From: Promethearchaeota archaeon | Lineage (GTDB): Archaea > Asgardarchaeota > Lokiarchaeia > Sigyniarchaeales > SOKP01 | Assembly (NCBI GenBank): GCA_048938445.1 | Contig: JBHLME010000014.1 | Coordinates: 1-50,002, forward strand | Direction of reading: 5' to 3' | Length of the DNA stretch: 50,002 nt | Shown here: piece by piece, positions 1 through 21,665 of the stretch | Numbering within the stretch: position 1 is the first letter of the stretch | How the letters are laid out: every line of letters starts with the position of its first letter | Translations under genes and position numbers: made by a program | The notes under the pieces: generated by a model | What the model was told of the DNA's origin: nothing | What the model saw: the letters and a program-made list of their open reading frames with translations, nothing else | The model's database searches: none

Positions 1-236
1 GTCTTTCAATCTTATCTTAATTAGATGGTTAATTTCATGCTCCATAATTAGAATACAACCCTTTATTTTTTTATTTTGGATCTTTTAAACCCTTACTACC
101 TAAAAATACATATGAAATTTGGACTTATAAATTTAAGTCCTAATTTTTTTTCATTTTTTTAGGAAGCATTCTTCATTTTCTTATCTTTTGTGGTCTTGCT
201 TGTTGATAATTTCCATCATTTGCTACAAGAATATTA

Positions 237-438: not shown

Positions 439-2142
439 TTGGTGAATTTTATGGAAAAAGAAAAAAGCAACAAGAGTTTTCTTCAGTGGGAGCAAGAAGA
501 AAAGCCGAAGGGGGAGGAAGAGCTTCATTTTCAGAAACAGAGCAATGAGATGATGAATCAGATATTGAAACTTAATCCTATTGACCCAATCAATGATGTA
601 TATCGGAAATTCATCGATTTGATGAATCTGGAAGAGCAGGAGCAAGAGCTTCAGTGGTGGGCAGCAAATATTTACGTTCACTTCTTGACAAGATTTGTAT
701 GGCGCATCGAAGTGCAGAACGTTGACGGTCATATGTTCCCGCAGTATGGCAATAATAAAGGATATGGCGGTATCCTCGTCTCAAATCACGAATCGCACTT
801 TGACCCGTTTTTTGTGGGAAGTTCAACAGAAAATATAAGAATTAATTGGCTTTCGAAACGCGATAATTTCCGAACACCTCTTGTCAGGTCACTCTTTCGA
901 AATTTAGGCGCTTATGAACACAATAAAGATAACCTTCAAGAGACATGGGATAAATCCAAAAAACTCTTGGAGTCCGGTCAGTGGATTGGTATCTTTCCGG
1001 AGGGCACTCGAAATATAGATGGGTCTATGGGTCCTTTCAAAACAGGAGCCGTGCGCTTAGCCATTGAATGCGGGGTGCCGATTGTACCATCTTGTGTACT
1101 TGGTTCTCGTGATGTCTTACCGAAAGGAAGTATGATTCCGATGCCAAAAAAAGTAACGGTACGCATAGGAAAACCAATTTTTTATGAGCAATATTCTAAA
1201 GACGATATTACTTACGATTTAATTAGGAAATTATCAGACGAGTTGAGACAGGAAGTAGTTGATCTGATCGAAGGAAAGCACGACTACGCTTATTCTGTCT
1301 CGGAAATGAGAAAAAAATTAAGAACTCCAGAAGAACTTTCAATCGGGACTCCTGATAGTGCTCAAAAAGAGTCTAACAAATTTAATAAATATCTAAAACA
1401 TTATTGGAAGAGTTTTTTACAGCTCATTGATGATTCCTGGTACACTCTTATAAAAACAACCGAAGTGCTTGGAATTCGGCGACAATTTGAATTGCTCTGC
1501 TGGCAATTTAATGGACATTTCATAGACAAGTTAATGTGTAATTTATTGATACCATACAAGGCCGTGGATTATGATAAATACTTACCTAAAGAAGGTGGCG
1601 CCGTCGTATGCACTAACCATAATTCTGAATGGGATGTCATCATTAACGCTGTAGCCATCCAACAAGCAGGTCGTAGAGTGTATCAAATGGCCAAAGAATC
1701 ACTATTTCAAATGCCTATAGTCAATGCTTGGATAAGAACACACCTCGCATTTCCTCTGATGAGAGGAGAACATGATGAAGGAGCATATTGGTTTGCGAAA
1801 GAGCGGCTAAATGAAGGAGAACTTGTTCTTGTATATCCAGAAGGAACCACGGTTGGTGGTCCTGAAATACTGGAAGGTCATACAGGTGCAATGCGTTTAG
1901 CAATTGAATGCAAAGTCCCAATCATCCCGATAGGGATTACCGGCACGGAAAATACATATCCTAAACATGCCAAGATGCTTAATTTTGGAAAGGGAAGCGT
2001 GTTCAAGATGGGTCCATTGTTCACTGAACATTCTCAATATTTTGATAAAACAATGCCTGATTATGATGAATTAAAGCGTCTCACGGATAATTTAATGAAA
2101 AAAATTGAAAACTTGCTCGTCTACAAGGATCCAAAAGTATAA
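439..2142 (+). CDS. plsC: Tandem two-domain lysophospholipid (1-acyl-sn-glycerol-3-phosphate) acyltransferase
   Basis: Domain 1 NHESHFD...FPEGTR; domain 2 NHNSEWD...YPEGT; both HxxxxD motifs intact; start may be ATG 451. Confidence 0.9.
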   Translation: MVNFMEKEKSNKSFLQWEQEEKPKGEEELHFQKQSNEMMNQILKLNPIDPINDVYRKFIDLMNLEEQEQELQWWAANIYVHFLTRFVWRIEVQNVDGHMFPQYGNNKGYGGILVSNHESHFDPFFVGSSTENIRINWLSKRDNFRTPLVRSLFRNLGAYEHNKDNLQETWDKSKKLLESGQWIGIFPEGTRNIDGSMGPFKTGAVRLAIECGVPIVPSCVLGSRDVLPKGSMIPMPKKVTVRIGKPIFYEQYSKDDITYDLIRKLSDELRQEVVDLIEGKHDYAYSVSEMRKKLRTPEELSIGTPDSAQKESNKFNKYLKHYWKSFLQLIDDSWYTLIKTTEVLGIRRQFELLCWQFNGHFIDKLMCNLLIPYKAVDYDKYLPKEGGAVVCTNHNSEWDVIINAVAIQQAGRRVYQMAKESLFQMPIVNAWIRTHLAFPLMRGEHDEGAYWFAKERLNEGELVLVYPEGTTVGGPEILEGHTGAMRLAIECKVPIIPIGITGTENTYPKHAKMLNFGKGSVFKMGPLFTEHSQYFDKTMPDYDELKRLTDNLMKKIENLLVYKDPKV

Positions 2143-2157
2143 CTGAAAACAATATTA

Positions 2158-3222
2158 ATGGGAATGAAGAGCATGGAAGCATTTGAAAAAAAAGAGATAC
2201 AAAAATTCAAGATTGGAATTCCACAGGCACTACATTTTTACAGGTATTTTCCTTTTTGGAAAAAAATTCTTGAAGAATTAGATGCGGAGATCGTGTTGAG
2301 TGGTCCTACGAATAAAAAGATCGTCGAAGAAGGGGTTCAACAAGGATTTGGCGAGCTATGTATCCCTGTCAAGCTTTATTATGGTCATGTATTAAAATTA
2401 ATTAGAGAACATCCCGATTTAGATTATCTTTTCGTTCCAAGATATGTTGCGGAGGTAGAGGACGCATATTTCTGTCCTAAATTCTTGTCTCTTCCTGATG
2501 TCATTAAAATCCTTCCTAATTGTCCCAAATTATTGAATTTTGAGGTAAACGTGAAGGAATTTCCGATTACAACCTCTGCGATTGAACTCGGCAAGCAACT
2601 TGGTAAGAGCCAAGCACGTTCTATAGAAGCCTATAATGCTGCGAAAAAGTATTATAAAGAATATCAAGATTTTTTACGAGAAGGAGCGTCGGTGAACCAT
2701 GCCTTGCGCCTTGTCAAGAGGGGGCTTCCTTTTAAATTGCCCAAAAAAAAACAGAAAAGTGATGTAAAGTTTTTTCTTTTAGGTCATGGATATAACATAT
2801 TCGACACCTTCATCAACCTTGATTTCCAGAAAAAACTCGCGGACCAAGGTGTCGAAGTGATCACGATTGAAAACTTGCCTGAAAAAATATTTAAAGTGCC
2901 CGTAGTAATAAACCGAAAACTTCGTAATTATTGGAGGCACGAGGAGGAAATCATGCAATCGATACGATATTTCCTTACTACAGGTAAGGATGAAATTGAT
3001 GGCGTTATTTTCCTCATCAGTTTCGCTTGCGGACCGGATTCTATAATTTCCGAACTTATCATGAGGGACATGAAAGTGGTGGGCTTGCCATTCTTGGAAA
3101 TCATTATGGATGAGCATTCAGGAGAAGCTGGGCTTTTAACAAGAATCGAAAGCTTTACAGAAATGATACGGCGTAAAAAGAAGAAATTGGATATGGAAAC
3201 AGAAAAAGGGAAAGTATCCTAA
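2158..3222 (+). CDS. DUF2229-type acyl-CoA dehydratase/reductase-related subunit (plasmalogen synthase Red1-like)
   Basis: IGIPQAL..YFPFW, LCIPVKLYYGHV, FCPKF, FACGPDS, DEHSGEAGLLTRIESF motifs. Confidence 0.8.
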   Translation: MGMKSMEAFEKKEIQKFKIGIPQALHFYRYFPFWKKILEELDAEIVLSGPTNKKIVEEGVQQGFGELCIPVKLYYGHVLKLIREHPDLDYLFVPRYVAEVEDAYFCPKFLSLPDVIKILPNCPKLLNFEVNVKEFPITTSAIELGKQLGKSQARSIEAYNAAKKYYKEYQDFLREGASVNHALRLVKRGLPFKLPKKKQKSDVKFFLLGHGYNIFDTFINLDFQKKLADQGVEVITIENLPEKIFKVPVVINRKLRNYWRHEEEIMQSIRYFLTTGKDEIDGVIFLISFACGPDSIISELIMRDMKVVGLPFLEIIMDEHSGEAGLLTRIESFTEMIRRKKKKLDMETEKGKVS

Positions 3223-3451
3223 AAATGTCTTTCTGAATTTAACAAGATTCTTCTATGTTGTACTATTTACTACTCCTAATTATTTCATTTTCTTTCTTGG
3301 ATGAGATTATTGATTATTTTATATCAAAAATTACACTTAATTTACTCTCAACATTATAAAAGAAGAAGATATATATAGAACGTTATATAATGATATTCAA
3401 AAAAAGATCACTAAATTAGAATTTAATTTATGATAAAAGAGAGCACGATTA

Positions 3452-4456
3452 ATGATGATTAGTAGTGAATTTCCACCTAATTTTACCTCCGAGCAACTTA
3501 TTAACTTGTATAAAAAAATGTTGGTGATTCGTGAATTTGAGAAAAGAATTTCTAAAGATGTGGGTCGAATTAATTCTGTTTTAGTTCATGCTTATACAGG
3601 TCAGGAGGCCATTGCTGTTGGAGCTTGTGCCGCGATTAATGAAGATGATTACATTACATCTACACACAGGGGCCATGGTCATTTTATTGCCAAGGGTGGG
3701 GATGTTAACTCGTTAATGGCAGAAATATATGGAAAAGAGGGTGGAATTTGTAAGGGTAGAGGAGGTTCGATGCATGTTGCAGATTTTTCAAAAAACATGC
3801 TTGGAGCAAATGGTATTGTCGGAGCAGGACCTCCATTAGCCTTAGGAGTCGCTTTAGCTTCAAAAATGAGAAAAGAAGGTAAGGTCGTTCTTACTTTTTT
3901 TGGTGACGGGGCATCAAACCAAGGTATGTTGCATGAATCGATGAATTTAGCAGCGACTTGGAAGCTTCCTGTAGTTTTTATTTTAGAAAACAACAATTAT
4001 GGCTGGAGCGCTCATACCAATAAGGTAACAGCAATAAAAGATTTGTCACTTCGAGCGCAAGGGTATGGATTTAAAGGCATTACCATAGATGGTAATGATG
4101 TCATCCAAGTATATAATGCTACAAAAGAAGCTGTCGATTATGCACGTGAAGGAGGTGGTCCTACACTAATAGAATGCAAGACATATAGATGGTCGGGACA
4201 AACTATAACAGACGCTGATGACTATCGTTCGAATGATGAAAAGGAAGAAGCAAAAACCAGATGTCCGATTGAGCTTTATAAAACAAGGCTCATCCGGGGA
4301 GAAATAATTGATCAAAACATGATTCAAGAAATTGAAGAAAAGGTATTAGGAGAAATTGAGATCAGCGTTAAATTTGCGAAAAAAAGCAAGAAACCTGATG
4401 TTGATGCCGTATTAAATGATATTTATAAAAATCCAATAAACTTGGGAGGTCGATAA
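3452..4456 (+). CDS. TPP-dependent 2-oxoacid/acetoin dehydrogenase E1 alpha subunit
   Basis: GQEA, STHRGHGH, GRGGSMH, GDGASNQG...ENN TPP motif. Confidence 0.92.
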   Translation: MMISSEFPPNFTSEQLINLYKKMLVIREFEKRISKDVGRINSVLVHAYTGQEAIAVGACAAINEDDYITSTHRGHGHFIAKGGDVNSLMAEIYGKEGGICKGRGGSMHVADFSKNMLGANGIVGAGPPLALGVALASKMRKEGKVVLTFFGDGASNQGMLHESMNLAATWKLPVVFILENNNYGWSAHTNKVTAIKDLSLRAQGYGFKGITIDGNDVIQVYNATKEAVDYAREGGGPTLIECKTYRWSGQTITDADDYRSNDEKEEAKTRCPIELYKTRLIRGEIIDQNMIQEIEEKVLGEIEISVKFAKKSKKPDVDAVLNDIYKNPINLGGR

Positions 4457-4457
4457 A

Positions 4458-5444
4458 ATGACTGAAGGATCGGTTAAAATGAAGGGATTGGAGGCCATTC
4501 GGCTAGCGATTGAAGAAGAAATGGAGTCTGACGAATCAGTATTCATGTTAGGAGAGGATATTGGAGAATTTGGGGGTTGTTTTAAAGTTACAAAAGGATT
4601 AATAGATAAATTTGGTCCTGAGAGAGTTCGAGATACCCCAATTAGTGAAAATGCCATTTTAGGCTGTGCTGTGGGAGCAGCAATGGCAGGAATGCGACCC
4701 ATCGCAGAGATCATGTTCGCAGACTTTTTGTGTGTGGGCATGGAAATGATCGTGAATCAAGCAGCAAAAGCACGGTACATGTATGGGGGTCAAATTGACG
4801 TTCCTGTCACAATAAGAGTTCCATTTGGAACAGGAATAAAGGGTGCTGCCCAACACTCGCAGTCATTTGAATCCTGGTTTATGCATATCCCGGGATTGAA
4901 AGTTGTCTTACCTTCACACGCAAGTGATTTTAAGGGTTTGCTAAAGACTGCCATTCGGGATGATGATCCCGTCATTTTCTTTGAAAATAAGAAATGTTAT
5001 TACTATACCGAAGAGGTGCCTTTAGACAAGAATTTTACCATACCATTTGGTCAAGCAAAGAAATTCACTGAAGGAGATGACGTGACAATCGTGGCAACTG
5101 GAGCAATGGTCCACGAAAGCATTATGGCTGCTAAAAATTTAAAAAAGGAAAACATAAACTGTGAAGTCATAGATCCAAGGACCTTAGTTCCATTAGATAA
5201 AAACACAATCCTCAATTCAGTTAAAAAAACAGGGTTATTAGTCATTGTAGATGAAGGGTGTAAAACTTGTTCCGTAAGTGCAGAGATTGCAGCACTTGTA
5301 GCTGAGGAGGGATTTGACTATTTAAAGCAAAAAATTGTAAGAATAAATACCCCAGATGTTCCAATTCCATACGCTCCAATTTTAGAAAAACAAATCATTC
5401 CAAGTGCGTCGTTAATCGAAGATATAGTTAAACAGCAATTTTAA
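4458..5444 (+). CDS. 2-oxoacid/acetoin dehydrogenase E1 beta subunit
   Basis: GEDIG, DTPISENAI, AEIMFADF, AAQHSQ, DPRTLVPLD; GGAGG RBS upstream. Confidence 0.92.
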   Translation: MTEGSVKMKGLEAIRLAIEEEMESDESVFMLGEDIGEFGGCFKVTKGLIDKFGPERVRDTPISENAILGCAVGAAMAGMRPIAEIMFADFLCVGMEMIVNQAAKARYMYGGQIDVPVTIRVPFGTGIKGAAQHSQSFESWFMHIPGLKVVLPSHASDFKGLLKTAIRDDDPVIFFENKKCYYYTEEVPLDKNFTIPFGQAKKFTEGDDVTIVATGAMVHESIMAAKNLKKENINCEVIDPRTLVPLDKNTILNSVKKTGLLVIVDEGCKTCSVSAEIAALVAEEGFDYLKQKIVRINTPDVPIPYAPILEKQIIPSASLIEDIVKQQF

Positions 5445-5479
5445 TAAATTTAAATTATTAAATCAAAAACTCTTAGTAT

Positions 5480-6811
5480 TTATTCTTGATTTACATAATT
5501 TAAGTAATAATTTTTAATATTCTCGAGATATTTTGGTATTTTTCTATACCAATTGGTCTCTAAATCTTCCAAATTATCATACTGAATGTAAAAGTAAGGG
5601 GAAAGATCAAAAGGAGCACTCTTCTGCCTTTTTTCATTATTAAATAAAATGACTTTTTTTCCTAAAGAAAGAAACATTCCTGTTTCCAGGTATGCATTGA
5701 CATTAGGAGGATTGAGTATTAATAAACCAAAATCGTATGAACGTGCTATCCTACAGAAATCACACGTTTTAATATCCAAACCTGTCACCTCAGATGGAAA
5801 ATCGATTTTAATCAATGAATCCTTGTTCTGAATATCAATTAAAGATTTAATTGTATCAATTTCTTGAGAATATTCACTTTTAGTATCATTTGGAAATTCA
5901 TACATGACAAATCCATTAATGGATGGCTCTTCTATTTTCTGTTTTATTTTATCAATTTTACTGCAAAATGCATCTAGTTCTTCGTGTAAAGGACAGTTAA
6001 GGAACTTTTGTTTATAAAGATAATCTCTTAATTGTTTTTTGTTCTCAACCAGCGCCTTTTGAGATAAAATAATGTCATTATTCAATTGTTCATCTAATTC
6101 TTTGACCTTTATTAATGTTTTATTAAGGTCATATTTAATAGAAAAATCATGTGCTTTATCAATTATGAGTTTAGCAGCAGAAAAATCGTGGTTATATGTA
6201 CGATTCTTTGCTTCTCCTAAAAGTTCCATTATGAAAATAATCTGATCTTCTATAGAAATATCTTCTTCTAGAGATGGAGATATTTCAAGAGATTCTTCTA
6301 TACCTATTATTTTATAAGCTAAAGAATTAAAGGCTTGTTCAACATTTTCTCCTGTCTTTGAAGACGTTTCAAAATAACCGACAAGATTATATGTTTTTAA
6401 TGCATTTTCAATTACACTTGAATTAACTGTATTAGGATGGTTTTCATTCACATATTTTTTTGTTCTAATTAAAACAATGGGCAAGTCTTTATATTCTTCA
6501 CGTAAAAGCGAAATCCATTCTTCAATACTATTAAGAGCATCTTGTTTAGTACCATCAAACATTAATAAAGCACCATTGGCGCCCCTAACATATACATTTA
6601 ATAAATATCTAAATCTTATAGCACCGTTTAAATCCCAAATATGAAATTTTACTGTATACCCATTAATTATAATTTCTTTTACATAGAAATTCACACCAAG
6701 AGCAGAATCAGAACCTTCACTATATCCTCCCCGAGCATGTCTACTTATAAGATCTGTCTTTCCAACCCCTGAATCTCCCGCTACAACTACTTTTAATGTA
6801 TAATCCGTCAT
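5480..6811 (-). CDS. Rab-like small GTPase fused to helical linker and C-terminal nucleoside 2-deoxyribosyltransferase/TIR-like domain
   Basis: KVVVAGDSGVGKT, IWDLNG, ETSSKTGENV; C-terminal NVNAYLETGMFLSLGKKVILF...PFDL...IQY; start placed at ATG 6811 (ORF open to 6904). Confidence 0.75.
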   Translation of the reverse strand: MTDYTLKVVVAGDSGVGKTDLISRHARGGYSEGSDSALGVNFYVKEIIINGYTVKFHIWDLNGAIRFRYLLNVYVRGANGALLMFDGTKQDALNSIEEWISLLREEYKDLPIVLIRTKKYVNENHPNTVNSSVIENALKTYNLVGYFETSSKTGENVEQAFNSLAYKIIGIEESLEISPSLEEDISIEDQIIFIMELLGEAKNRTYNHDFSAAKLIIDKAHDFSIKYDLNKTLIKVKELDEQLNNDIILSQKALVENKKQLRDYLYKQKFLNCPLHEELDAFCSKIDKIKQKIEEPSINGFVMYEFPNDTKSEYSQEIDTIKSLIDIQNKDSLIKIDFPSEVTGLDIKTCDFCRIARSYDFGLLILNPPNVNAYLETGMFLSLGKKVILFNNEKRQKSAPFDLSPYFYIQYDNLEDLETNWYRKIPKYLENIKNYYLNYVNQE

Positions 6812-6959
6812 GATTTTTAGATGATAACCCAGAGGATTTCTTTTTAAAAATAATTTAAAAAAATATTGAATATAATTAAATTTAAAATTTATTGTTTTCT
6901 CCATTTGCGGAGAGGATATGCAAAAATTTACTTATATAATACATTTAAATTTTGTTTAA

Positions 6960-7080
6960 AAAGGGGGCTCCTGCTACCAAGACCAACTACGGTCCCTAAT
7001 TGAAATAGAATGAGCAAGTTGAATGCAATCGTATTTCTACAATAACCAAAAGACAAAAATCCAAGATGGTAGCAGAAACC
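6960..7080 (-). ncRNA. Candidate structured RNA element of unknown class
   Basis: On - strand GGUUUCUGCUACCA pairs over 14 bp (2 G-U) with UGGUAGCAGGAGCC, enclosing further hairpins, followed by CCC and a U tract. Confidence 0.35.
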
Positions 7081-7560
7081 ATTTTTTTTAAAGAATATTC
7101 TCTTTTTAGAATTTCAATTCACTTCCTATTTTAGGGATCTTTCCCTATCGTGACTTTATGGAGATCTTACTGTTTATAGGAAAAAATTCAGCATTAGAAC
7201 ATCATAACAAACTATTCCAAGCACTCTGAAACCAGGGATAATAGTTATAACTCTAATTAAGAACCTTTTCCTTTCGAAATGTAACGCCTCTCTTTGATTG
7301 TAAAGTCATATTTTAAATATATAAAAAAAAGATTCGAATGGTATTATATAAAATAGTGTGGAATGATATTGAAGGAAAGTATTTTTTTTAAATAAACAAT
7401 TCCAGATTGTTTCTTCATTCATCTGAGTATATTGCAATATTCAAGGCTTGCAGATCTGATGAGCCCATTATTTCTTCTCTTATAAAAATTTGGAAAGGAT
7501 AAAAAAAAGAAAAAAAAAAGTGAGTTAAAGTTATTTTATTTTAATGGTTTTTCAGATGCT

Positions 7561-8118
7561 TTAAGGTGTTTTGAACAATTTATTTCTTTTAATCAATATA
7601 AAACTGATTAAGCCTATTATAGCTATACCAGCAAAAATTAGAAAATAATTTCCAAATGGTATGAAGGGTAAACCAACGTTGCACCCTTGCGTAGCACTTG
7701 AAGATAATGTATAAGGAATATCAGTGCCCGCATTAATGAGCTCAATTTTAATGTAATAATAACCATCAGTAGTAATGCAATCGTAATTGATTGTTTCTCT
7801 ATTTGAGGAACCCGTGCTCGAATCAATTACAATCTCATTAAAATCATATAAATATAGTTCAATATCATAAACAGAACTACTCCAATCGATCTGAACTGTC
7901 AGAGCGTGCCCAGTATTCAAATATACTTTAAACCAATCATCATCATATTGACTTATCTGTAAAGTACCATAATAAGTAGTTAAAGCAATTGTATAAGCGT
8001 CGTTAAATGTATCATTCTCTTCATAAGAATCATCAGCTTTAGCGATAGCAATGCTGGAAAAACATATCAAGAAAAAAACACTCAGTCCAAATAATATTAG
8101 TTTTTTAGGTTTTATCAT
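7561..8118 (-). CDS. Secreted, membrane-anchored PPC (pre-peptidase C-terminal)-like domain protein with Loki-type C-terminal anchor
   Basis: Signal peptide; DDSYEENDTF, DDDWFKV, DIELYLYD motifs; IPFGN + TM helix + basic tail. Confidence 0.7.
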   Translation of the reverse strand: MIKPKKLILFGLSVFFLICFSSIAIAKADDSYEENDTFNDAYTIALTTYYGTLQISQYDDDWFKVYLNTGHALTVQIDWSSSVYDIELYLYDFNEIVIDSSTGSSNRETINYDCITTDGYYYIKIELINAGTDIPYTLSSSATQGCNVGLPFIPFGNYFLIFAGIAIIGLISFILIKRNKLFKTP

Positions 8119-8366
8119 TTTTCTTTCGCCATTTTAAATTTGGATAGTCAATTTAAATTTTATAACTTGACAATTTAAAAGTTTTGAAAAAATTTTGATT
8201 GATTGAATTTATTTTTCAATGAAAACTTGAAATTTTAATAATTTACTTCAAGAATTTACCAGATGCCTTTAAATATATTCCTGTTGAATTATATTGATGT
8301 GAGTAAAATTTAAAAAAAAATTAATTATACGTAATAATAGAATAAATAATACATATTTAAGAATAA

Positions 8367-8975
8367 ATGTCGCTAAAAGATGGAATAGACAGTAATGAAT
8401 TGAAAATAAGAAGAGAATTAAGAAAAATTGCCCGTGAGCGTCAAAAGTTTGCTACGGGAATAACACTTGGATTCTTGTCAATCTCATTGGTTTTTTATAA
8501 CTTAATCTATTTTTTCTCAGAACAAAGACTATTTTTTTTTATAATCCTGATTGTTTTAAGCGTCGTAATAAATGTCACCATTTTAACCCTTGTTACTTTT
8601 ATTTTTAGTTCCATCATCCTATCTATTGAAGAAATTAATGATTTTAACAAGAAATACAATAATAGCATCCATCTGGACGATATATGGACAAAATCATTCC
8701 AAAAACCTAGGAGGTTTAACAACATCTTAAGTTTTATTATCCTATTTCTTCTCAATCCAATTATAATTTCATTATTGATCGTGATTGAGCCGATTGGATT
8801 TTATATTAGTTTCGTTGTCAATCTCATTTTGAACTTGATATTTATTCATACGTCAAAAGAATTTTTAAAAGAGGTTTCTAATTACCTATCAGGTTCAAAA
8901 AAATTTATCTACGGTGTTTGGATATTCTCTTTACTAATTCCACTCATATTTGTCATTTTTTATAAATTTCTGTGA
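8367..8975 (+). CDS. Hypothetical multi-pass membrane protein
   Basis: 202-aa ORF with about five hydrophobic segments. Confidence 0.6.
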   Translation: MSLKDGIDSNELKIRRELRKIARERQKFATGITLGFLSISLVFYNLIYFFSEQRLFFFIILIVLSVVINVTILTLVTFIFSSIILSIEEINDFNKKYNNSIHLDDIWTKSFQKPRRFNNILSFIILFLLNPIIISLLIVIEPIGFYISFVVNLILNLIFIHTSKEFLKEVSNYLSGSKKFIYGVWIFSLLIPLIFVIFYKFL

Positions 8976-9081
8976 TTTTCCTCTCTTAATTATTTATTAT
9001 TATTTTTATTTAAATGAAAGGACTCCAAACTTACATAAATGCTTTTTTTTATCTGAAATGAATATATATTTTTTATAGTGT

Positions 9082-9177
9082 AAAGTTTAAATTACTTAGA
9101 TCCCTATTTATTTTATTAAAACAATTGTTTGATCAAATAGATACTTCTTTATTAAAAAAGTGTTAATTTTTTAATAA
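9082..9177 (+). promoter_or_regulatory. Promoter/leader of activase block: TTTAAA (9086-9091) plus perfect palindrome AAACAATTGTTT (9119-9130)
   Basis: Homologous to 339-434. Confidence 0.65.
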
Positions 9178-9236
9178 ATATTTTAAATTCAATCTTTTAT
9201 AACGAGAAAATAGCGTCTCTAGAGGATTCAGTTAAA

Positions 9237-10397
9237 ATGAAAGTTAGCTTTCCAAACATGGGATTTAATCGGGTAGCGTTCAAGACATTCTTTGAGCAAA
9301 TGGGTGCTGATGTTATCGTTCCCGAGCCAACGAACCGAAACACGCTAAAGTTTGGCGTGAAGCATAGTCCTGAATTTGTTTGTTTCCCATTCAAAGCAAC
9401 TTTAGGAGATTTTAAAAATGCGTTGGATCAAGGCGCAGATACGCTAGTGATGGCAATTGATTGCGGTCCTTGTCGTTTTGGTTTCTATGCTAGCGTTCAA
9501 GAGCGCATCTTAAGAGATCTTGGATACAAAGATTTCAAGATGATTCCCTTAGATCAAGCGGATTTACTCGAATTTAAATGGGTTAAGACACTATTCGCTA
9601 CATCTGCTCATAGAGATTTAAGAATGTATGCAAATGCTGTAAAAGCTACTATTTTTCTCTTAAAAAAGGCAAAATTACTTGAAGATATCCAAACAGCCGA
9701 AGGAATCTTCAGAGCATACGAGCAAAATCAAGGGGATACCACGAGAGTTGTTGATGAGTTATTACAGAAACTCGAGGACACAAACACGTTGAAAGGTTTA
9801 CGGCAGTTTCGTGACGTTATAAAAGAAGATTTTTCAAAAATGGATATTGATAAGAAGAGAGAACCCCTTCGAGTAGGGCTCTCTGGTGAGATTCACATAA
9901 GTTTGGAACCTTATGTTAATCTTGACATCCGTCGTAAGTTAGGAGAATTAGGTGTTGAAATTCATCAATCCTTGAGTCTTTACGACTGGGTAATGCATAA
10001 GTTACATTTAAATTATCATCGAAAATGGTTGGAGCATTTGGCACGACCACACGTTCCAATGGATATCGGTGGCGAATGCGTGTGGGTATTAGGAGAATAT
10101 ATCGATAAAGCTAAGGCGGGTTTTGATGGATTCATTCACCAATACCCTTTTACATGCATGCCAGAGGTTACCGCCCGCACGATAATTACAAACAAGTTAA
10201 AGAAAATGTACGATCTCCCAATAATCTATTTCTCTTTTGATGAACAGTCTGGAGTTGAAGGCATGAGGACAAGATTAGAAGCTTTTGTAGATTTAATGGA
10301 GGGTCGTCGTGAAAAATTCAAAAAGGAACAAAGGACTCATGAAGAGTATGGAAACAATTTTTATCACGAATGTATTAAATTAGTTCAAATAGAGTAA
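9237..10397 (+). CDS. 2-hydroxyacyl-CoA dehydratase-family reductase subunit (PlsR/Red2-like)
   Basis: CFPFKATLG, GPCRFGFY, GEIH, PFTCMPE, DEQSGVEGMRTRLEAF motifs. Confidence 0.8.
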   Translation: MKVSFPNMGFNRVAFKTFFEQMGADVIVPEPTNRNTLKFGVKHSPEFVCFPFKATLGDFKNALDQGADTLVMAIDCGPCRFGFYASVQERILRDLGYKDFKMIPLDQADLLEFKWVKTLFATSAHRDLRMYANAVKATIFLLKKAKLLEDIQTAEGIFRAYEQNQGDTTRVVDELLQKLEDTNTLKGLRQFRDVIKEDFSKMDIDKKREPLRVGLSGEIHISLEPYVNLDIRRKLGELGVEIHQSLSLYDWVMHKLHLNYHRKWLEHLARPHVPMDIGGECVWVLGEYIDKAKAGFDGFIHQYPFTCMPEVTARTIITNKLKKMYDLPIIYFSFDEQSGVEGMRTRLEAFVDLMEGRREKFKKEQRTHEEYGNNFYHECIKLVQIE

Positions 10398-10409
10398 TGG
10401 TATGAATAT

Positions 10410-11432
10410 ATGGTTCAAGTATCAGATAAAATAACCAGTGAAGATAACAAGAAAGATGCTTTCTTAGGAATTGATGTCGGAAGCGTTAGTTTAAAATTCG
10501 TCTTGATAGATACAGATGGAAAAGTTTTAACTCACGTATTTTTGAGAAATAAGGGTTCTCCAATTGACTCGGTCAAGGATGGCATGGCAAAGCTAAGAGA
10601 AACAATACAAGATAATGAGGAATTACAGGAATACGCGATAAGAGCATGTGGAACAACTGGTTCTGCTCGTTATCTTACAAAAGCTATAGTAGGTGGCGAT
10701 TTAGCAAAAACAGAGATTATTGCTCATGCGGTTGCAACGCAATCAATGTTTCCTGATGTGAGGACGATATTAGAAATTGGTGGACAAGACTCAAAAATCA
10801 TCATTCTTCGAGATGGAATAATCATTGATTTCGCTATGAATTCTGTGTGTGCTGCGGGAACTGGTTCTTTTCTTGACCATCAAGCATCAAGGTTAGGTAT
10901 TCCTATAGAAGAATTTGGAGGACATGCCGTTAAATCTAAAAAACCCGTGTCAATTGCTGGAAGATGTACCGTATTTGCCGAATCTGATATGATACACAAG
11001 CAAAATGCGGGGCACTCTAAGGAGGATATAATAGCGGGTTTATGTGATTCTTTAGTTAGAAATTATTTGAATAATTTATCCAAAGGTAAGGATTTGGAAG
11101 AACCCGTTGTATTTCAAGGAGGTGTTTCATATAATCAAGGTATCGTAAAAGCTTTCGAGCGTCATCTCAATTGTAAGGTGGTCGTTCCTAAATATAACGT
11201 GTTAATGGGTGCGTTAGGGATGGCAATTCTCGTAAGAGATTTTTACGTGGATCACGAGACAGAAACGTTATTCAGGGGTCTCGAAGTATCGGATCTCGAG
11301 TTCAAGACATCAGCATTTCATTGTGGTGATTGTCCTAATAATTGTGAAATTGTCCAAGTCAAGTTACCTTCAGATGAAAATAAAGTCATAGCCCGGTGGG
11401 GCTCTAGATGTGGTAAATGGGAGGTGTTTTAA
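10410..11432 (+). CDS. BcrAD/BadFG-family [4Fe-4S] ATP-dependent activase with C-terminal Cys cluster
   Basis: GIDVGSVSLK, TTGSAR, EIGGQDSK, MNSVCAAGTGSFL, RCTVFAESD, FQGGV; tail CGDCPNNC...GSRC. Confidence 0.9.
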   Translation: MVQVSDKITSEDNKKDAFLGIDVGSVSLKFVLIDTDGKVLTHVFLRNKGSPIDSVKDGMAKLRETIQDNEELQEYAIRACGTTGSARYLTKAIVGGDLAKTEIIAHAVATQSMFPDVRTILEIGGQDSKIIILRDGIIIDFAMNSVCAAGTGSFLDHQASRLGIPIEEFGGHAVKSKKPVSIAGRCTVFAESDMIHKQNAGHSKEDIIAGLCDSLVRNYLNNLSKGKDLEEPVVFQGGVSYNQGIVKAFERHLNCKVVVPKYNVLMGALGMAILVRDFYVDHETETLFRGLEVSDLEFKTSAFHCGDCPNNCEIVQVKLPSDENKVIARWGSRCGKWEVF

Positions 11433-11639
11433 GTGTCGGACCTATTAAAAAATATTCTCAAGCAATTCAACGAGTTCAGCGAGGATGTTCTCGAGACAAT
11501 CAAGCATAAAGCCCGATTATCCACGCTTTTTGATGTTTATCTTGAAAAAGTTATTCCATCATTCGTAAACGAGAAGGATCTCAAGGAGTATTACGAAAAA
11601 AGGATGGAAGAAGTAAATGAATTTATATATAAATTATAA
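11433..11639 (+). CDS. Small hypothetical protein abutting the activase
   Basis: Starts immediately after the activase stop; GGAGGTG RBS at the end of the upstream gene. Confidence 0.65.
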   Translation: MSDLLKNILKQFNEFSEDVLETIKHKARLSTLFDVYLEKVIPSFVNEKDLKEYYEKRMEEVNEFIYKL

Positions 11640-11656
11640 TTAGAGGTTTAAAACAA

Positions 11657-12340
11657 ATGGTCGAAATTCCATTAGTTACGGAAGAAAAGGATGAGAAAAA
11701 GGACGATCGAATGGCTCTTGCTGGAGATTTGCTCTATGCTGCCGTGAAAGGTATTGGAGGATTGGCATTGAAAGCCTTTACGAATTTGGAAATTGAAGGA
11801 AAAGAGAAGATTCCTCTCTTAGGGAAAGCAATTCTTACGACAATTAGTAAAAATTCGATGCGAGACATGCTCATCATCAGTCAATTAACCGGTAGAAAAG
11901 TGCATTTCATGGTGGATCCAAAACTCATGAAACATGAAATTGCGGGGCCAGTTCTTAAGACACTTGGAATGTTCAGGAGCACTACCAGCAAGGAAGATAC
12001 AGAGCCAATTGATAAGGTGTTTGAAATTTTAAATCAGATGGGAGATTTAGTTGCAATGACTCCTGAAGCCAAGTTTGATCGTGAAATACAAGTCAAATCA
12101 ATAGCCAGCATAATCAAATTTGCAGCTCTTGGAAAAGCACCAATTATTCCGTTGGCAATTTATGGCACGGAGACGAAATTATTTGGCGCAATTAAAGCAA
12201 AGGGTCTAAAAGTCAAAGTGGGAAACCCTATTAATTGTCCCATGAAGCTCACGAGAGATAAAAACAGAGATCAACGATACGAGCTCGCAGAAGATATTGT
12301 AAACATAATTGATACGATGCGAACGGATCCGGATTTTTGA
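11657..12340 (+). CDS. PlsC-fold protein with degenerate catalytic motifs
   Basis: IEGKEKIP..G, VHFM, PIIPLAIYG, VKVGNPI fold signatures; HxxxxD replaced by SKNSMRD and FPEGT by TPEAK. Confidence 0.75.
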   Translation: MVEIPLVTEEKDEKKDDRMALAGDLLYAAVKGIGGLALKAFTNLEIEGKEKIPLLGKAILTTISKNSMRDMLIISQLTGRKVHFMVDPKLMKHEIAGPVLKTLGMFRSTTSKEDTEPIDKVFEILNQMGDLVAMTPEAKFDREIQVKSIASIIKFAALGKAPIIPLAIYGTETKLFGAIKAKGLKVKVGNPINCPMKLTRDKNRDQRYELAEDIVNIIDTMRTDPDF

Positions 12341-12391
12341 TATAAATTGTAAGGAAAAAAGAAAAGAATAATAAATTTGGAGGTAGATCCC

Positions 12392-12613
12392 ATGGAAAAT
12401 TTATTAAAAACAGAAGGAAAATATAAGAAAAGTATAAAAGATTCTGAGTTAAAGAGAATGTTCAAGGAATTGGTTGTAAATGACACGGAGGAGGAGAAAG
12501 TCATGAATGACCTGTTCTATAAATCTGTCAAAATGGTATTTGATACCGGTTTTCATTTAGCCAAGGAGTTAAACGAAGACTTGCTAGCAGATACTCACGA
12601 TAAGAACATTTAA
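12392..12613 (+). CDS. Small hypothetical protein, last gene of activase block
   Basis: GGAGGT RBS before ATG 12392; T-rich tract after stop. Confidence 0.6.
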   Translation: MENLLKTEGKYKKSIKDSELKRMFKELVVNDTEEEKVMNDLFYKSVKMVFDTGFHLAKELNEDLLADTHDKNI

Positions 12614-18692: not shown

Positions 18693-21665
18693 TTGACAAA
18701 ATTACCAATGAAGCTTACAAATTTTACTATAAAGGATTTATTTACTGATGAGGAGAAATTAACTTTTCTTGTTGGTGCGGGATGTTCTGTTGATGTTCCT
18801 TCCTGTTTACCAGCAGGACGCACTATGATTGAGACGATTATGAATTATACTTGTGTTAAATCTGAACGACATAGAATCCTCCAAATAAAAAACCTTCGAT
18901 TTGAACAAATTGTTGAAATTATTCGAGACACATTAGATAGAAAATTAAAAATAATCGACTATTACGGACAGTGTGACAAACCGAACCTGCAACATTTCTT
19001 CCTAGCTGATAAGATTAAGAAAGGCCATTTTGTAATGACTACAAATTTTGATTTTTTAATCGAATATGCACTAATACGATTAGGTGTTCCTCAAGAAGAG
19101 ATTAGTGTAAACATTACTCAACAAGATTTTGAAACGAATGATAACCCAATTAAATTATTCAAACAAGGAAAAAAAACACTTTATAAAATTCATGGTTCGA
19201 CTAAAAATATAATTACAGAAGAGGATACAAGAGATTCTTTAGTTGCTACAATTCAAGCATTCGGTTCAGGGAAGGAAGGTGAGAACGTATTTCAAGTAGA
19301 ATGGTTTAAGCGTTCTTTGTTCGAGAATATTTCAAAGAATCGTACCCTGGTTGTCATGGGATATTCAGGAAGTGATGATTTTGACATCGTTCCCACGTTA
19401 ATGGTATTAAAACATCTTAAAAATGTTATTTGGATTAATTACACGCAAGATGATTGCGGAATGGAAAAAATTTATGAAATTAATGATCCTACCATTAAAG
19501 AAACTGAAAAGAAAGATAAAATAAATCGAATACTTGAGGATATTTACAGAATGAATAATGCTGAGCATATTTATAGGGTGGATGTGAACACGACGAGATT
19601 AATCGAAGAATTAATTGATTTTAGACCAAATCTAAGTTCAACTTATTTTTCCTTGAGCCCTATAACCTGGCTTAAAAAGAATGTTCCTCTTCCAAGCGAA
19701 ATTGAGGAGTATTATATTCCTTATAAAATATTCAATGATTTTGGCATGTTCGATGATGCAATGAAGTGCTCCAAGATGATCCTTAAAACTGCTGAAAAAA
19801 ATAGCAATAAAAAATGGAAATCTACTGCTTTAAACAACATAGGATTCTTATTATATAGTAAAGGTGAATTAGACGAGGCATTGAAGCTTTACCAGGAAGC
19901 TTTGGCAATTGGGAAGCAATTGGGCGATTTACAGGGGATAGCTTCGAGATTAAATAATATTGGATTAATATTAAAAATTAAAGGAGAATTGGATGAGTCT
20001 CTGAAGCTTTACCAGGAAGCGCTGCTAAATGACAAGCAATTGGGCGATGCGAGGGGGATAGCCACGAGATTATACAACATTGGAAGAATATTATATGAAA
20101 AAGGTGAATTGGATGAGGCAATGAAGCATTACCGGGAAGCACTAGCAATTGAGGAACAATTCGGTTACCTTGGGGAGAAAGCCAGCTCCCTTAATAACAT
20201 CGGATTAATATTAAAAAATAAAGGTGAATTGGATGAGGCATTGAAGTACTATAAAGAAGCACTGGCAATTGGCGAGCAATTAGGCGATATACCGGGGAAA
20301 GCTACGAGATTAAACAATATTGCATTGATATTAGAAGATAAAGGTGAATTGGACGAGGCAATGAAGTTTTACAAGGAGGCGCTGACAATTGACGAGCAAT
20401 TGGGCAACTTACAGGGGAAAGCCACCAGGTTAAACAATATTGGAAAATTATTAGAAATTAAAGGTGAATGGAACGAGGCAATGAATTTTTACAGGGAATC
20501 ACTAGCAATTGACGAGCAATTGGGCGACTTGCAGGGGAAAGCCACCAGGTTAAACAATATTGGATTGATATTAGAGAATAAAGGTGAATTAGATGAGGCG
20601 CTGAAACATTATCAGGAATCGCTGGCAATCGGCGAGCAAATGGGTGACCTGCAGGGAAAAGCAACAAAATTAAGCAATATTGGATCGATTTTAAAGATTA
20701 AGGGTGAATTAGATGAGGCACTGAATCTTTACAGGGAGGCGCTGGCAATTGACGATCAATTGGAAGACCTACTTGGGAAAGCCGCGAGGTTAAACAATAT
20801 TGGATTGATATTAGATGAAAAAAATGAATTGGACGAAGCATTGAAGTATTACCAGGAATCATTGGCAATTACCGAACAATTGGGTTATTTAAGCGGGAAA
20901 ACCATGAATCTTGTAAACATTGGATCATTATTAAGTAGTAAGGGCGAATTGGACGAAGCATTGAAGTATTACAAGGAAGCGTTGGCAATCACAGAACAAT
21001 TGGGGGACTTGAAAGGTAAAGCAACTATTCTTAATAATATCGGATTTTTATTGAAAAAAAAAGATGAATTGAACGAGGCAATGAAGTATTACCAGGAAGC
21101 GTTAGCAATTGATGAGCAATTAGGAGACCTTCGGGGGAAGGTCGCGAGGTTAAACAATATTGGAGGGATCTTAGAAAATTTTGGTAAATTGGATGAATCC
21201 TTGAATTATTACCACAAAGCATTAATAATCGATGAACAATTAGGTGATCAACTAGGAAAAATTTCAAGGTTAAGTTGTATCGGATTTTTACTTAAAAAAA
21301 AAGGTGATTTAAACAATGCCATAAAATATTATCAGGAAGCGTTGGTAATTCATGAACAATTAGGAGATTTAAGAGGAAAGACTAGGAGATTAAATACTAT
21401 TGGATTAATCTTATATGAAAAGGATGAAGTGGACGAAGCAATGAAGTATTTCAGGGAAGCTTTGAAGATTGACGATCAATTAGGGAACTTAAAGGGGAAA
21501 GCTACTAGATTAAACAATATTGGATTTATTTTTCAGAATAAAGGTGAATTGGATGAGGCATTGAAGTACTATAAAGAAGCTCTGATTATCGCAGAGGAAC
21601 TCAATTCTCCAGATGTAAAGACATATAGAAAAAATATTGACTTTGTATTGAATAAAATGAAGTAA
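18693..21665 (+). CDS. SIR2-like (SIR2_2) domain plus TPR array protein
   Basis: FLVGAGCS, TTNFD, KIHGS, MGYSGSD; 40-aa repeats LNNIG...KGELDEALKYY; start may be ATG 18708. Confidence 0.88.
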   Translation: MTKLPMKLTNFTIKDLFTDEEKLTFLVGAGCSVDVPSCLPAGRTMIETIMNYTCVKSERHRILQIKNLRFEQIVEIIRDTLDRKLKIIDYYGQCDKPNLQHFFLADKIKKGHFVMTTNFDFLIEYALIRLGVPQEEISVNITQQDFETNDNPIKLFKQGKKTLYKIHGSTKNIITEEDTRDSLVATIQAFGSGKEGENVFQVEWFKRSLFENISKNRTLVVMGYSGSDDFDIVPTLMVLKHLKNVIWINYTQDDCGMEKIYEINDPTIKETEKKDKINRILEDIYRMNNAEHIYRVDVNTTRLIEELIDFRPNLSSTYFSLSPITWLKKNVPLPSEIEEYYIPYKIFNDFGMFDDAMKCSKMILKTAEKNSNKKWKSTALNNIGFLLYSKGELDEALKLYQEALAIGKQLGDLQGIASRLNNIGLILKIKGELDESLKLYQEALLNDKQLGDARGIATRLYNIGRILYEKGELDEAMKHYREALAIEEQFGYLGEKASSLNNIGLILKNKGELDEALKYYKEALAIGEQLGDIPGKATRLNNIALILEDKGELDEAMKFYKEALTIDEQLGNLQGKATRLNNIGKLLEIKGEWNEAMNFYRESLAIDEQLGDLQGKATRLNNIGLILENKGELDEALKHYQESLAIGEQMGDLQGKATKLSNIGSILKIKGELDEALNLYREALAIDDQLEDLLGKAARLNNIGLILDEKNELDEALKYYQESLAITEQLGYLSGKTMNLVNIGSLLSSKGELDEALKYYKEALAITEQLGDLKGKATILNNIGFLLKKKDELNEAMKYYQEALAIDEQLGDLRGKVARLNNIGGILENFGKLDESLNYYHKALIIDEQLGDQLGKISRLSCIGFLLKKKGDLNNAIKYYQEALVIHEQLGDLRGKTRRLNTIGLILYEKDEVDEAMKYFREALKIDDQLGNLKGKATRLNNIGFIFQNKGELDEALKYYKEALIIAEELNSPDVKTYRKNIDFVLNKMK
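19820..21600 (+). repeat. 15 tandem 120-bp coding repeats (TPR)
   Basis: aaggtgaatt-like word recurs every 120 bp from 19861 to 21541. Confidence 0.9.

Follow-up and report, generated by a model that had tools for sequence, protein, structure and literature searches.

The stretch analysed here, hereafter called the window, comprises 50,002 nucleotides (nt) of contig JBHLME010000014.1 from a Promethearchaeota archaeon (GenBank assembly GCA_048938445.1; GTDB class Lokiarchaeia, order Sigyniarchaeales). Between positions 439 and 12613 it carries two blocks of genes which are the halves of a single putative lipid-modification operon typical of one Lokiarchaeia family. The operon encodes a tandem acyltransferase (PlsC2), two paralogous catalytic subunits (DH1 and DH2), a predicted ATP-driven electron activase (Act), an acyltransferase-like protein that has lost its catalytic histidine (PlsCd) and two small proteins (s68 and s78). 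The best overall explanation is that the operon is an ether-lipid-forming system which couples acylation with ester reduction, and this explanation has about an even chance of being right. That a radical enzyme of the PlsA/Ger superfamily is functionally coupled to the acyltransferases is probable; that the product would be an ether lipid, as analogy with the characterised relatives suggests, is put at somewhat below even. An examination of the sequence alone, hereafter called the original prediction, had proposed a plasmalogen or alkyl-ether lipid synthesis system at this place; its observation is confirmed and its interpretation partly supported.

Composition and conservation of the operon

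The genes of the window were identified from a six-frame listing of open reading frames (ORFs) and from hidden Markov model (HMM) scans with Pfam and NCBIfam. All seven genes of the original prediction were found again at the same coordinates, on the plus strand and in two blocks (lengths in amino acids, aa):

439-2142, plus strand: PlsC2, tandem lysophospholipid/glycerol-phosphate acyltransferase; two PF01553 domains, 178.9 bits
2158-3222, plus strand: DH1, first catalytic subunit; DUF2229 155.4 bits, HGD-D C-terminal tail 29.3 bits
9237-10397, plus strand: DH2, second catalytic subunit; N-terminal DUF2229 part 43.4 bits, HGD-D tail 23.1 bits (below the Pfam cut-off of 28.4)
10410-11432, plus strand: Act, predicted ATP-dependent electron activase, 340 aa; BcrAD_BadFG PF01869 160.4 bits, TIGR00241 194.4 bits
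11433-11639, plus strand: s68, 68-aa protein without cysteine; conserved in 16 other loci
11657-12340, plus strand: PlsCd, PlsC-like, catalytic histidine lost; PF01553 29.6 bits (cut-off 23)
12377-12613, plus strand: s78, small acidic protein of 78 aa; conserved in 6 other loci

Related loci were collected with a DH1 scan of one genome per prokaryote species, which gave 88 relatives, and 80 loci with a DH1 identity of 69-83 % were kept. Their gene content was determined by tblastn with the window proteins, and recurrent neighbour genes were found by clustering their ORFs. The occurrence of DH1 orthologues in so many other genomes argues that the gene set did not come together by chance, and the "Asgard-like" host that had been suggested is borne out by the record titles, all but one of which name Promethearchaeota or Asgard metagenome-assembled genomes (MAGs), the exception being a Nanopelagicaceae bacterium MAG. 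The gene order in the relatives is HAD phosphatase-PlsC2-DH1-DH2-Act-s68-PlsCd-s78. Two loci with less than 300 nt of upstream sequence were excluded; in 71 of the other 78, PlsC2 ends no more than 300 nt from DH1, and in 75 of them it is found somewhere upstream. Downstream counts were restricted to the 32 loci with at least 6 kb beyond DH1; these contained orthologues of DH2 (18 loci), Act (14), s68 (13), PlsCd (12) and s78 (5), and DH2 started within 300 nt of DH1 in 8 of them. The genes PlsC2-DH1-DH2-Act-s68-PlsCd, in part followed by s78, are contiguous in, for example, loci L020, L022, L073, L077 and L082.

The two blocks of the window are separated by a segment of about 6 kb (3223-9236) in which further genes were recognised from Pfam:

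3452-5444, plus strand: 2-oxoacid dehydrogenase E1 alpha/beta
5480-6904, minus strand: Ras-family GTPase
7561-8118, minus strand: PPC-domain protein
8367-8975, plus strand: membrane protein

No match to E1 alpha or E1 beta was found in any of the 80 related loci, and the segment is therefore regarded as a lineage-specific insertion outside the system. The Ras-family protein has 474 aa, with an N-terminal Ras/Roc small GTPase domain and a C-terminal extension of about 270 aa in which no domain was recognised with confidence; Ras-like genes recur near the operon in relatives.

The HAD-family phosphatase (260 aa) precedes PlsC2 on the same strand in 61 of the 80 loci. Its orthologue in the genome of the window (65 % identity) is on contig C183. 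The first ~100 bases of the window (window 1-120) recur almost unchanged about 2.2 kb beyond this gene, on its downstream side (region C183:20774-25044), so that C183 and the window contig may be neighbours parted at a repeat. C183 turns visibly G+C-rich near its end, as judged by eye and not by a composition count, and this end may be a chimeric join.

The two-domain PlsC of the original prediction is present as described, with both HX4D and PEGT motifs in each PF01553 domain: HESHFD at 117 (H117) and HNSEWD at 394 (H394), and PEGT at 187 (in FPEGTR) and 467 (in YPEGTT). The protein has 567 aa when read from position 439 and 563 aa from the ATG at 451, which is probably the start codon because an identical database protein (P0411) has 563 aa. 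The best NCBIfam model was TIGR00530, 1-acylglycerol-3-phosphate O-acyltransferase (145.4 bits, cut-off 102.95). The sole PF01553 matches found in the genome were the two PlsC2 domains. Two PlsY-like matches (PF02660) were also found in the genome (C69:352-876 and C145:27398-27955); they sit in open frames of about 410 aa, roughly double the length of bacterial PlsY, which has about 200 aa, and this suggests fusions to another domain.

The degenerate PlsC was likewise confirmed. The position of the catalytic histidine of PlsCd is occupied by K, D or E in 16 of 16 aligned sequences, none of which has an HX4D motif, and the PEG motif reads PEA, PES, PEE or PSA in all 16 rows, in an alignment with 57 invariant columns. 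PlsCd is thus a candidate lipid-binding or scaffold subunit. A complex prediction for DH1, DH2 and PlsCd, made from our own alignments with PlsCd as the partner, gave no answer (score 0.00) and counts neither way. The two small ORFs are regarded as real genes because of their conservation in 16 and 6 other loci (alignments of 17 and 7 rows). The C-terminal 45 residues of s68 are highly conserved; the protein had no Pfam or NCBIfam match and no usable match in the ESM Atlas. A search for RNA sequencing runs covering window positions 439-3222 listed none.

The distribution of the system was determined in 201 genomes sampled evenly from the phylum, with a threshold of E ≤1e-60 for DH1 orthologues. 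These were present in 37 of the 40 genomes of the GTDB family of the window, in two of three genomes of its sister family (47-48 % identity) and in one 76 %-complete genome of another family; none was found in the remaining 24 families. An Asgard-wide distribution was therefore rejected: the DH1 orthologues found are almost confined to the one family of the window. PF01553 domains were found in 39 of its 40 genomes and in all three of the sister family, in which two single-domain PlsC genes adjoin the DH1-like gene (G094:C6, G099:C30), and also in families f14, f22 and f25, where a DH1 orthologue was not found. NCBI titles place loci with 72-78 % identical DH1 (L030, L031, L036, L046, L053 and others) in Thor-, Hermod-, Hod-, Odin- and Borrarchaeota, and set against the single-family pattern in GTDB these labels or bins seem inconsistent.

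Relationship of DH1, DH2 and Act to ester reductases and dehydratases

The enzymes PlsA/PlsR and Ger turn sn-1 esters into vinyl or alkyl ethers (PMC13159169, PMC8788747). Ger consists of two activation domains, DUF2229 and further short D and H domains (BBDHDDH), of which BBD is kept in all alkyl-ether producers (PMC13159169), and PlsA/PlsR of Clostridium perfringens is a two-gene form (PMC8788747, PMC9702350). The three split proteins can be matched to these modules: Act corresponds to the second activation domain with the cysteine-containing linker behind it, the first D-H module has its counterpart in DH1, and the PlsR-like module at the C-terminus has its counterpart in DH2. The claim that the subunits form a complete split set held, all three being co-linear with the fused modules, but the same genome also encodes a fused pair, a PlsA-like protein of 972 aa (BBD) and a PlsR-like protein of 470 aa without a Pfam match (C143:20998-27457; L011:5999-12458). 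Act shares 34 % identity with the second activase domain of this PlsA-like protein, in an alignment that runs through the cysteine motif, and DH1 shares 27 % identity with the same protein over the entire D region. DH2, a paralogue of DH1 with 21 % identity, matches the 470-aa protein weakly; it aligns with the C-terminal module (residues ~990-1394) of bacterial fused proteins of 1385-1395 aa (P0307, P0312), and strongly with the second half of DH1-DH2 fusion proteins of about 750 aa. Such fusions (689-785 aa) make up 19 rows of the 255-row FastTree described below.

The cysteine tail that had been noticed in the activase reads C305-x2-C308-x-N-x-C312 ... G-S-R-C334. In our own alignment this motif, CxxCxNxC...RC (Cys4), was present in all 21 tails of split Act proteins and all seven fused linkers; the activators MbdQ, HadI and HgdC in the PDB (121.8-131 bits) span Act residues 19-278 only and not Cys4. 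Residue conservation in DH1 was assessed by aligning D modules, 149 from non-fused and 101 from fused proteins. Cysteines C68, C106 and C291 were conserved in 100 % of both, and H77, Y212, D216, W259, D318, E319, H320, T328, R329 and E331 were each present in at least 88 % of both sets. The invariant cysteines of DH2 are C49, C79 and C307. As far as can be judged from sequence, the split set thus agrees with the PlsA/Ger type both in its parts and in its conserved core. The BBD arrangement is not on one polypeptide in the window, which has a single activation domain encoded by a separate gene, with DH1 7 kb away.

DH1 covers positions 1-217 of the 218 of DUF2229 and only positions 281-342 of the HGD-D profile. 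Its AlphaFold2 model (mean pLDDT, a per-residue confidence score, 93.7) gave Foldseek TM scores of 0.50-0.58 to HadB/C, the double-cubane protein DCCP and BzdNO/MbdON, with 11-17 % sequence identity. A sequence search of the PDB gave no structure of DUF2229, the profile matches covering the last ~65 residues. The paralogues DH1 and DH2 thus have the fold seen in the double-cubane protein and in the catalytic subunits of benzoyl-CoA reductases and 2-hydroxyacyl-CoA dehydratases. An identity as HgdABC or Bcr was rejected, because there is no full-length HGD-D match and equivalog scores are far below their cut-offs: DH1 reached about 16 bits with the HadC and DCCP equivalogs, which have cut-offs of 700 and 350. 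The HMM placement that the original prediction had proposed as a check against HgdABC and Bcr therefore turned out in its favour.

The fused pair on C143 adjoins a radical SAM/SPASM gene, with an ABC-2 transporter downstream. Orthologues of its PlsA-like protein (66-69 % identity) occur in seven of 41 genomes of the family of the window, its own genome counted. In 10 of the 80 loci, PlsC2-DH1 stands beside such a PlsA-like/PlsR-like pair in place of DH2-Act. Of five such genomes, four keep DH2-Act-PlsCd elsewhere; one complete chromosome retains PlsC2-DH1-PlsA-PlsR, and DH2, an Act orthologue and PlsCd were not found in it. A third paralogous set was seen in relatives (L091:16165-21025, also L052, L067 and L083). 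It begins with a fusion protein of 800-840 aa, which combines FAD_binding_4 of the GlcD/vanillyl-alcohol-oxidase type with a module resembling DH1; an Act' (52-53 % identity) and a DH2' (40-42 %) of its own come next, and in L091 the whole set directly follows PlsC2-DH1-PlsA-PlsR. Selenocysteine was considered for these fusions and rejected, the apparent in-frame TGA being the stop codon of the gene itself. DUF2229 and DH1-profile searches found no FAD_binding_4-DH1 fusion in the genome of the window.

Proposed function and alternative explanations

In the proposed mechanism, PlsC2 would acylate a glycerol-phosphate-type acceptor, possibly at both positions, and the HAD enzyme would take off a phosphate. 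PlsCd would present the acyl-glycerol substrate. A homodimer of Act would inject electrons of low potential into the Fe-S clusters that DH1 and DH2 would each bind through their three invariant cysteines, and the DH1/DH2 enzyme would reduce one O-acyl ester carbonyl to an alk-1-enyl or alkyl ether. The link between acylation and the radical enzyme is considered likely because PlsC accompanies the enzyme in three different settings, namely as a tandem fusion, as two genes in the sister family and as a triple-domain protein in metagenome locus L154, and because there is also a dead PlsC in the reductase block and an occasional adjacency to the PlsA-like pair. Ester-to-ether reduction is the best single guess for the reaction since it is the sole characterised chemistry for this module set.

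The wider family of DH1 was surveyed with HMMER across 1.84 billion cluster representatives; this exhaustive search gave 2703 homologues at E ≤0.001 and 412 at ≤1e-30. Among the best 150 there were 149 new identifiers: 132 proteins of 300-399 aa, eight of 600-799 aa and nine shorter fragments. Longer homologues came from a word-indexed search and included three FAD_binding_4-DH1 fusions (282-291 bits), DH1-DH2 fusions (184-250 bits) and activase-fused proteins of 1000-1440 aa, which reached at most 161 bits. Trees were calculated with FastTree (255 rows) and IQ-TREE (LG+G4, quick search, 80 rows) and rooted on DH2 modules. DH1 fell in a clade (support 97-99) with its Asgard orthologues, the FAD fusions, four stand-alone proteins, of which one cluster is labelled Omnitrophota, and the proteins of metagenome loci L154 and L180.

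Genes surrounding stand-alone members were examined with a profile of 40 stand-alone proteins searched against metagenome contigs, which gave 80 loci. Of the 72 loci long enough to contain DH2, 70 had it directly behind DH1, and Act came next in 57 of 63; DH1-DH2-Act is therefore a widespread three-gene cassette, with proteins of about 330, 370 and 330 aa. Compared with the window, ordinary cassettes have 30-40 % identity in DH1, 30-38 % in DH2 and 49-62 % in Act; the corresponding values for L154 and L180 are 41-47 %, 50-54 % and 59-64 %. The order in L154 (L154:2442-11168) is triple-PlsC (876 aa)-LarA-like-HAD (490 aa)-DH1 (47 %)-DH2 (54 %)-Act (59 %), and the same HAD stands ahead of the cassette in L180. 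The LarA-like protein of L154 belongs to the lactate racemase family and is a homologue of the nickel-pincer racemase, here within a glycerolipid-type cluster. Named stand-alone members are from Thermoanaerobacter species, Chloroflexota and Clostridia, and the recurring neighbours of the cassettes, GerA, SpoVAD, a sigma factor, D-Ala-D-Ala carboxypeptidase and FBP (fructose-bisphosphate) aldolase, are sporulation or housekeeping genes.

Several of these and other results weigh against the ether-lipid explanation. All of the best 150 DH1 representatives are stand-alone proteins or DH1-DH2 fusions of at most 770 aa, none of them fused to an activase, and the activase-fused D modules form one clade with support of 100 in both trees (101 of 101 in FastTree, 23 of 23 in IQ-TREE), with DH1 outside it. 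The tree rows were picked by similarity to DH1, the characterised PlsA and Ger proteins are not among them, and the fused clade, from which ten clusters were looked up by name and carry only MAG labels, is equated with PlsA/Ger by architecture alone. In keeping with the poorly resolved backbone among the stand-alone forms, the fused clade may be sister to them or nested among them. Placed by its sequence relatives, DH1 itself belongs to a large stand-alone family that has no characterised member. Kinship to PlsA/PlsR/Ger thus stood as far as modules, Cys4 and core residues are concerned, but not in the trees. Residues R95 and K108, present in 89-95 % of the non-fused forms, are replaced by S and Y in the fused forms, and the substrate may therefore differ from that of the fused forms.

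The genomic associations also speak in part in this direction. A PlsC-domain gene, as detected with an HMM built from Asgard PlsC proteins, lies within 8 kb of the cassette in only one of the 80 metagenome loci (L154), so that the PlsC linkage that had been predicted holds in 71 of 78 related loci but not in the stand-alone family at large. Asgard families f5 (20 of 21 genomes) and f27 (3 of 3) have stand-alone DH1-like genes and yet gave no PF01553 match (0 of 21 and 0 of 3); full-length fused proteins of about 1400 aa are carried by 18 of 21 and 3 of 3 of these genomes, respectively. Additional PlsA homologues that lack the activation domain occur in all of the Bacillota screened in a 2026 article, which describes their role as unclear (PMC13274423). 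Analysis of a cultured Lokiarchaeon gave only archaeal lipids, as cited in PMC13400652, according to which the method used may miss ester lipids. A weaker point concerns Thermoanaerobacter ethanolicus, which has a stand-alone DH1 homologue, yet its membrane-spanning lipid is called a tetraester (PMC13274423), and the ger values in Table 1 of PMC13159169 are given for T. maritima only.

Among the alternatives, the one that survives best, although unlikely, is that DH1, DH2 and Act modify the acyl donor or chain by radical dehydration or reduction of a substituted acyl thioester, and that PlsC2 then installs the chain in an ester lipid. The nearest solved relatives and the fold are those of acyl-CoA dehydratases and reductases, the stand-alone family is set apart from the fused clade, the cassette occurs in genomes without PlsC, and the conserved basic residues R95 and K108 could bind coenzyme A (CoA) or a phosphate group. 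Nevertheless, fused proteins of the PlsA/Ger type have an identical conserved core, and scores to the Had, Hgd and DCCP equivalogs do not exceed 16 bits (cut-offs 350-700). The conserved neighbours of the cassette include no gene for a CoA-transferase, an acyl-CoA dehydrogenase or a ligase, CoA-transferase and acyl-CoA dehydrogenase genes being absent from among the neighbours of the bacterial cassettes, and the pseudo-PlsC in the reductase block points to a glycerolipid-type ligand.

It is more improbable that the operon targets a molecule that is neither a membrane lipid nor a glycerolipid, in which case the PlsC enzymes would acylate another hydroxyl group, of a metabolite or a head-group precursor, HAD would dephosphorylate it and the radical enzyme would reduce or dehydrate it. 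For the HAD protein, the sole matches are to generic (small-molecule) phosphatase models, none of which reaches its cut-off; no transmembrane-like segment was found in any operon protein; L154 contains the 2-hydroxyacid racemase homologue; and PF01553 covers other acceptors, for example lyso-ornithine lipid, as seen in the NCBIfam matches. The top model of PlsC2, TIGR00530, which it matches above the cut-off, argues against this, as do the sole characterised relatives of the reductase, which act on glycerolipids.

Slightly less probable again is remodelling or salvage of foreign lipids, which the original prediction had itself raised: lysolipids or glycerol esters from bacterial partners or sediment would be re-acylated, and esters reduced or cleaved, outside the organism's own membrane. 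The genome encodes a canonical archaeal geranylgeranylglyceryl phosphate (GGGP) synthase and can therefore do without the operon in making its core membrane; genes for MFS transporters recur upstream in relatives (27 and 13 loci); and no convincing GpsA-type glycerol-3-phosphate (G3P) dehydrogenase was found in the genome, the best match (22.8 bits) being doubtful. The missing G3P source is not fatal to the ether-lipid explanation, because bacterial PlsY and PlsC take both glycerol-phosphate stereoisomers (PMC13400652). The two PlsY-like genes fit de novo acylation. Among the clustered ORFs of the 80 loci, the conserved operon had no lipase, esterase or glycerophosphodiesterase gene. It also counts against salvage that the ATP-driven low-potential reduction is not known to be reversed in this superfamily.

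An ordinary HgdABC- or BcrABCD-type dehydratase or reductase of amino-acid or aromatic fermentation, with PlsC adjacent by chance, is very improbable and contradicted by the tests made, for although Act reaches 75-116 bits with the benzoyl-CoA reductase A, D and Q models and DH1 has a fold like HadBC and BzdNO, the Act scores are far below the cut-offs (313-578 bits), HGD-D matches only the last ~60 residues of DH1 and DUF2229 its full length, the genome has separate HgdC-like activases of 263-267 aa (on C118 and C26), and adjacency to PlsC in 71 of 78 loci is not chance.

Significance and comparison with known systems

Ger homologues in Lokiarchaeota, including Ca. Prometheoarchaeum, and in Heimdallarchaeota were published in 2022, and the idea of bacterial-type ether lipids in Asgard archaea has also been in print since then (PMC13159169). 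A full-text literature search, limited to the accessible parts of the articles, gave no description of the stand-alone three-subunit form in archaea, of an operon of Lokiarchaeal PlsC with pseudo-PlsC, HAD and two small proteins, or of PlsC and DH1 as near-obligate neighbours; these proteins could be listed in the supplements to the 2022 and 2026 articles. A bearing on eukaryotic plasmalogens had also been proposed, and nothing in the analysis ties the system to eukaryotic plasmalogen synthesis; a 2025 preprint, according to its title and abstract, derives the eukaryotic pathway from myxobacteria.

The PlsC homologue of Lokiarchaeota has long been debated in papers on the lipid divide as a hint of bacterial-type lipids. 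In the family of the window it is almost never alone, but heads an operon of the sole superfamily known for oxygen-free conversion of esters to ethers, and a vague possibility is thereby replaced by a defined set of seven or eight genes open to expression and assay. In its fullest form, which is a tentative proposal and would sooner prove wrong than right, the reading is that one Lokiarchaeal family makes non-isoprenoid alkyl or alk-1-enyl ether glycerolipids, its sole PlsC-type enzyme feeding a three-subunit, ATP-driven ester reductase to which the dead PlsC presents the substrate. If this were true, the products might have a glycerol-1-phosphate (G1P) backbone or be mixed isoprenoid/alkyl lipids, two independent lineages of enzymes would be able to convert esters to ethers, and real "mixed membrane" chemistry would exist in archaea closely related to the eukaryotic host lineage. 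Targets for lipid analysis of Lokiarchaeal cultures would be dimethyl acetals and 1-O-alkylglycerols, with an extraction that preserves esters. Bacterial ether lipids serve as palaeoclimate proxies, and the function of the large stand-alone cassette family also matters for the question of where they come from. The interest lies mainly in the fact that a long-standing question is made directly testable.

Elsewhere in the window, 34 kb from the operon, a long-chain-fatty-acid-CoA-ligase-like AMP-binding enzyme is encoded (46167-48017, minus strand), which scores under the cut-offs and could be a supplier of acyl-CoA. Other predicted proteins are a 990-aa protein with SIR2_2 and TPR domains (18693-21665, plus strand), a RuBisCO-like protein whose top model, 2,3-diketo-5-methylthiopentyl-1-phosphate enolase, is under its cut-off (39935-41305, minus strand), and a xylulokinase-like FGGY sugar kinase of 634 aa, also under cut-off (42518-44422, plus strand).

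With bacterial PlsC, and with the "Lokiarchaeal PlsC" of the lipid-divide papers, PlsC2 shares PF01553 with both catalytic motifs, and a homologue from the original Loki's Castle metagenome (LCGC14_1041950) is among its matches. In contrast to bacterial PlsC, it has two domains with catalytic motifs on one chain of 563-567 aa, lacks a transmembrane-like segment and is almost always encoded beside DH1.

HadBC/HgdAB with HadI/HgdC, BzdNO/MbdON and DCCP/DCCP-R have the same catalytic fold and the same type of ATP-dependent activator as the system of the window, which differs in that it has no context of CoA metabolism and in that its activase adds the Cys4 module. The stand-alone cassettes of anaerobic bacteria, which go by the name "acyl-CoA dehydratase activase-related protein", are alike in gene set, gene order and the Cys4 tail of Act, and DH1 nests among them in both trees, but they are mostly found amid sporulation or housekeeping genes, and 79 of the 80 loci lack a PlsC gene within 8 kb.

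With PlsA/PlsR of Clostridium perfringens and Ger of Thermotoga maritima (Tmari_0479) and Desulfatibacillum alkenivorans (SHJ90043), the system shares the modules, the invariant cysteine triad, the acid/histidine core and the anaerobe context. It is made up of three polypeptides with a single activase domain, whereas the known enzymes have tandem activation domains fused to D, and it is linked to the tandem PlsC, the dead PlsC, HAD and two small proteins, partners of which the accessible parts of the PlsA and Ger literature make no mention.

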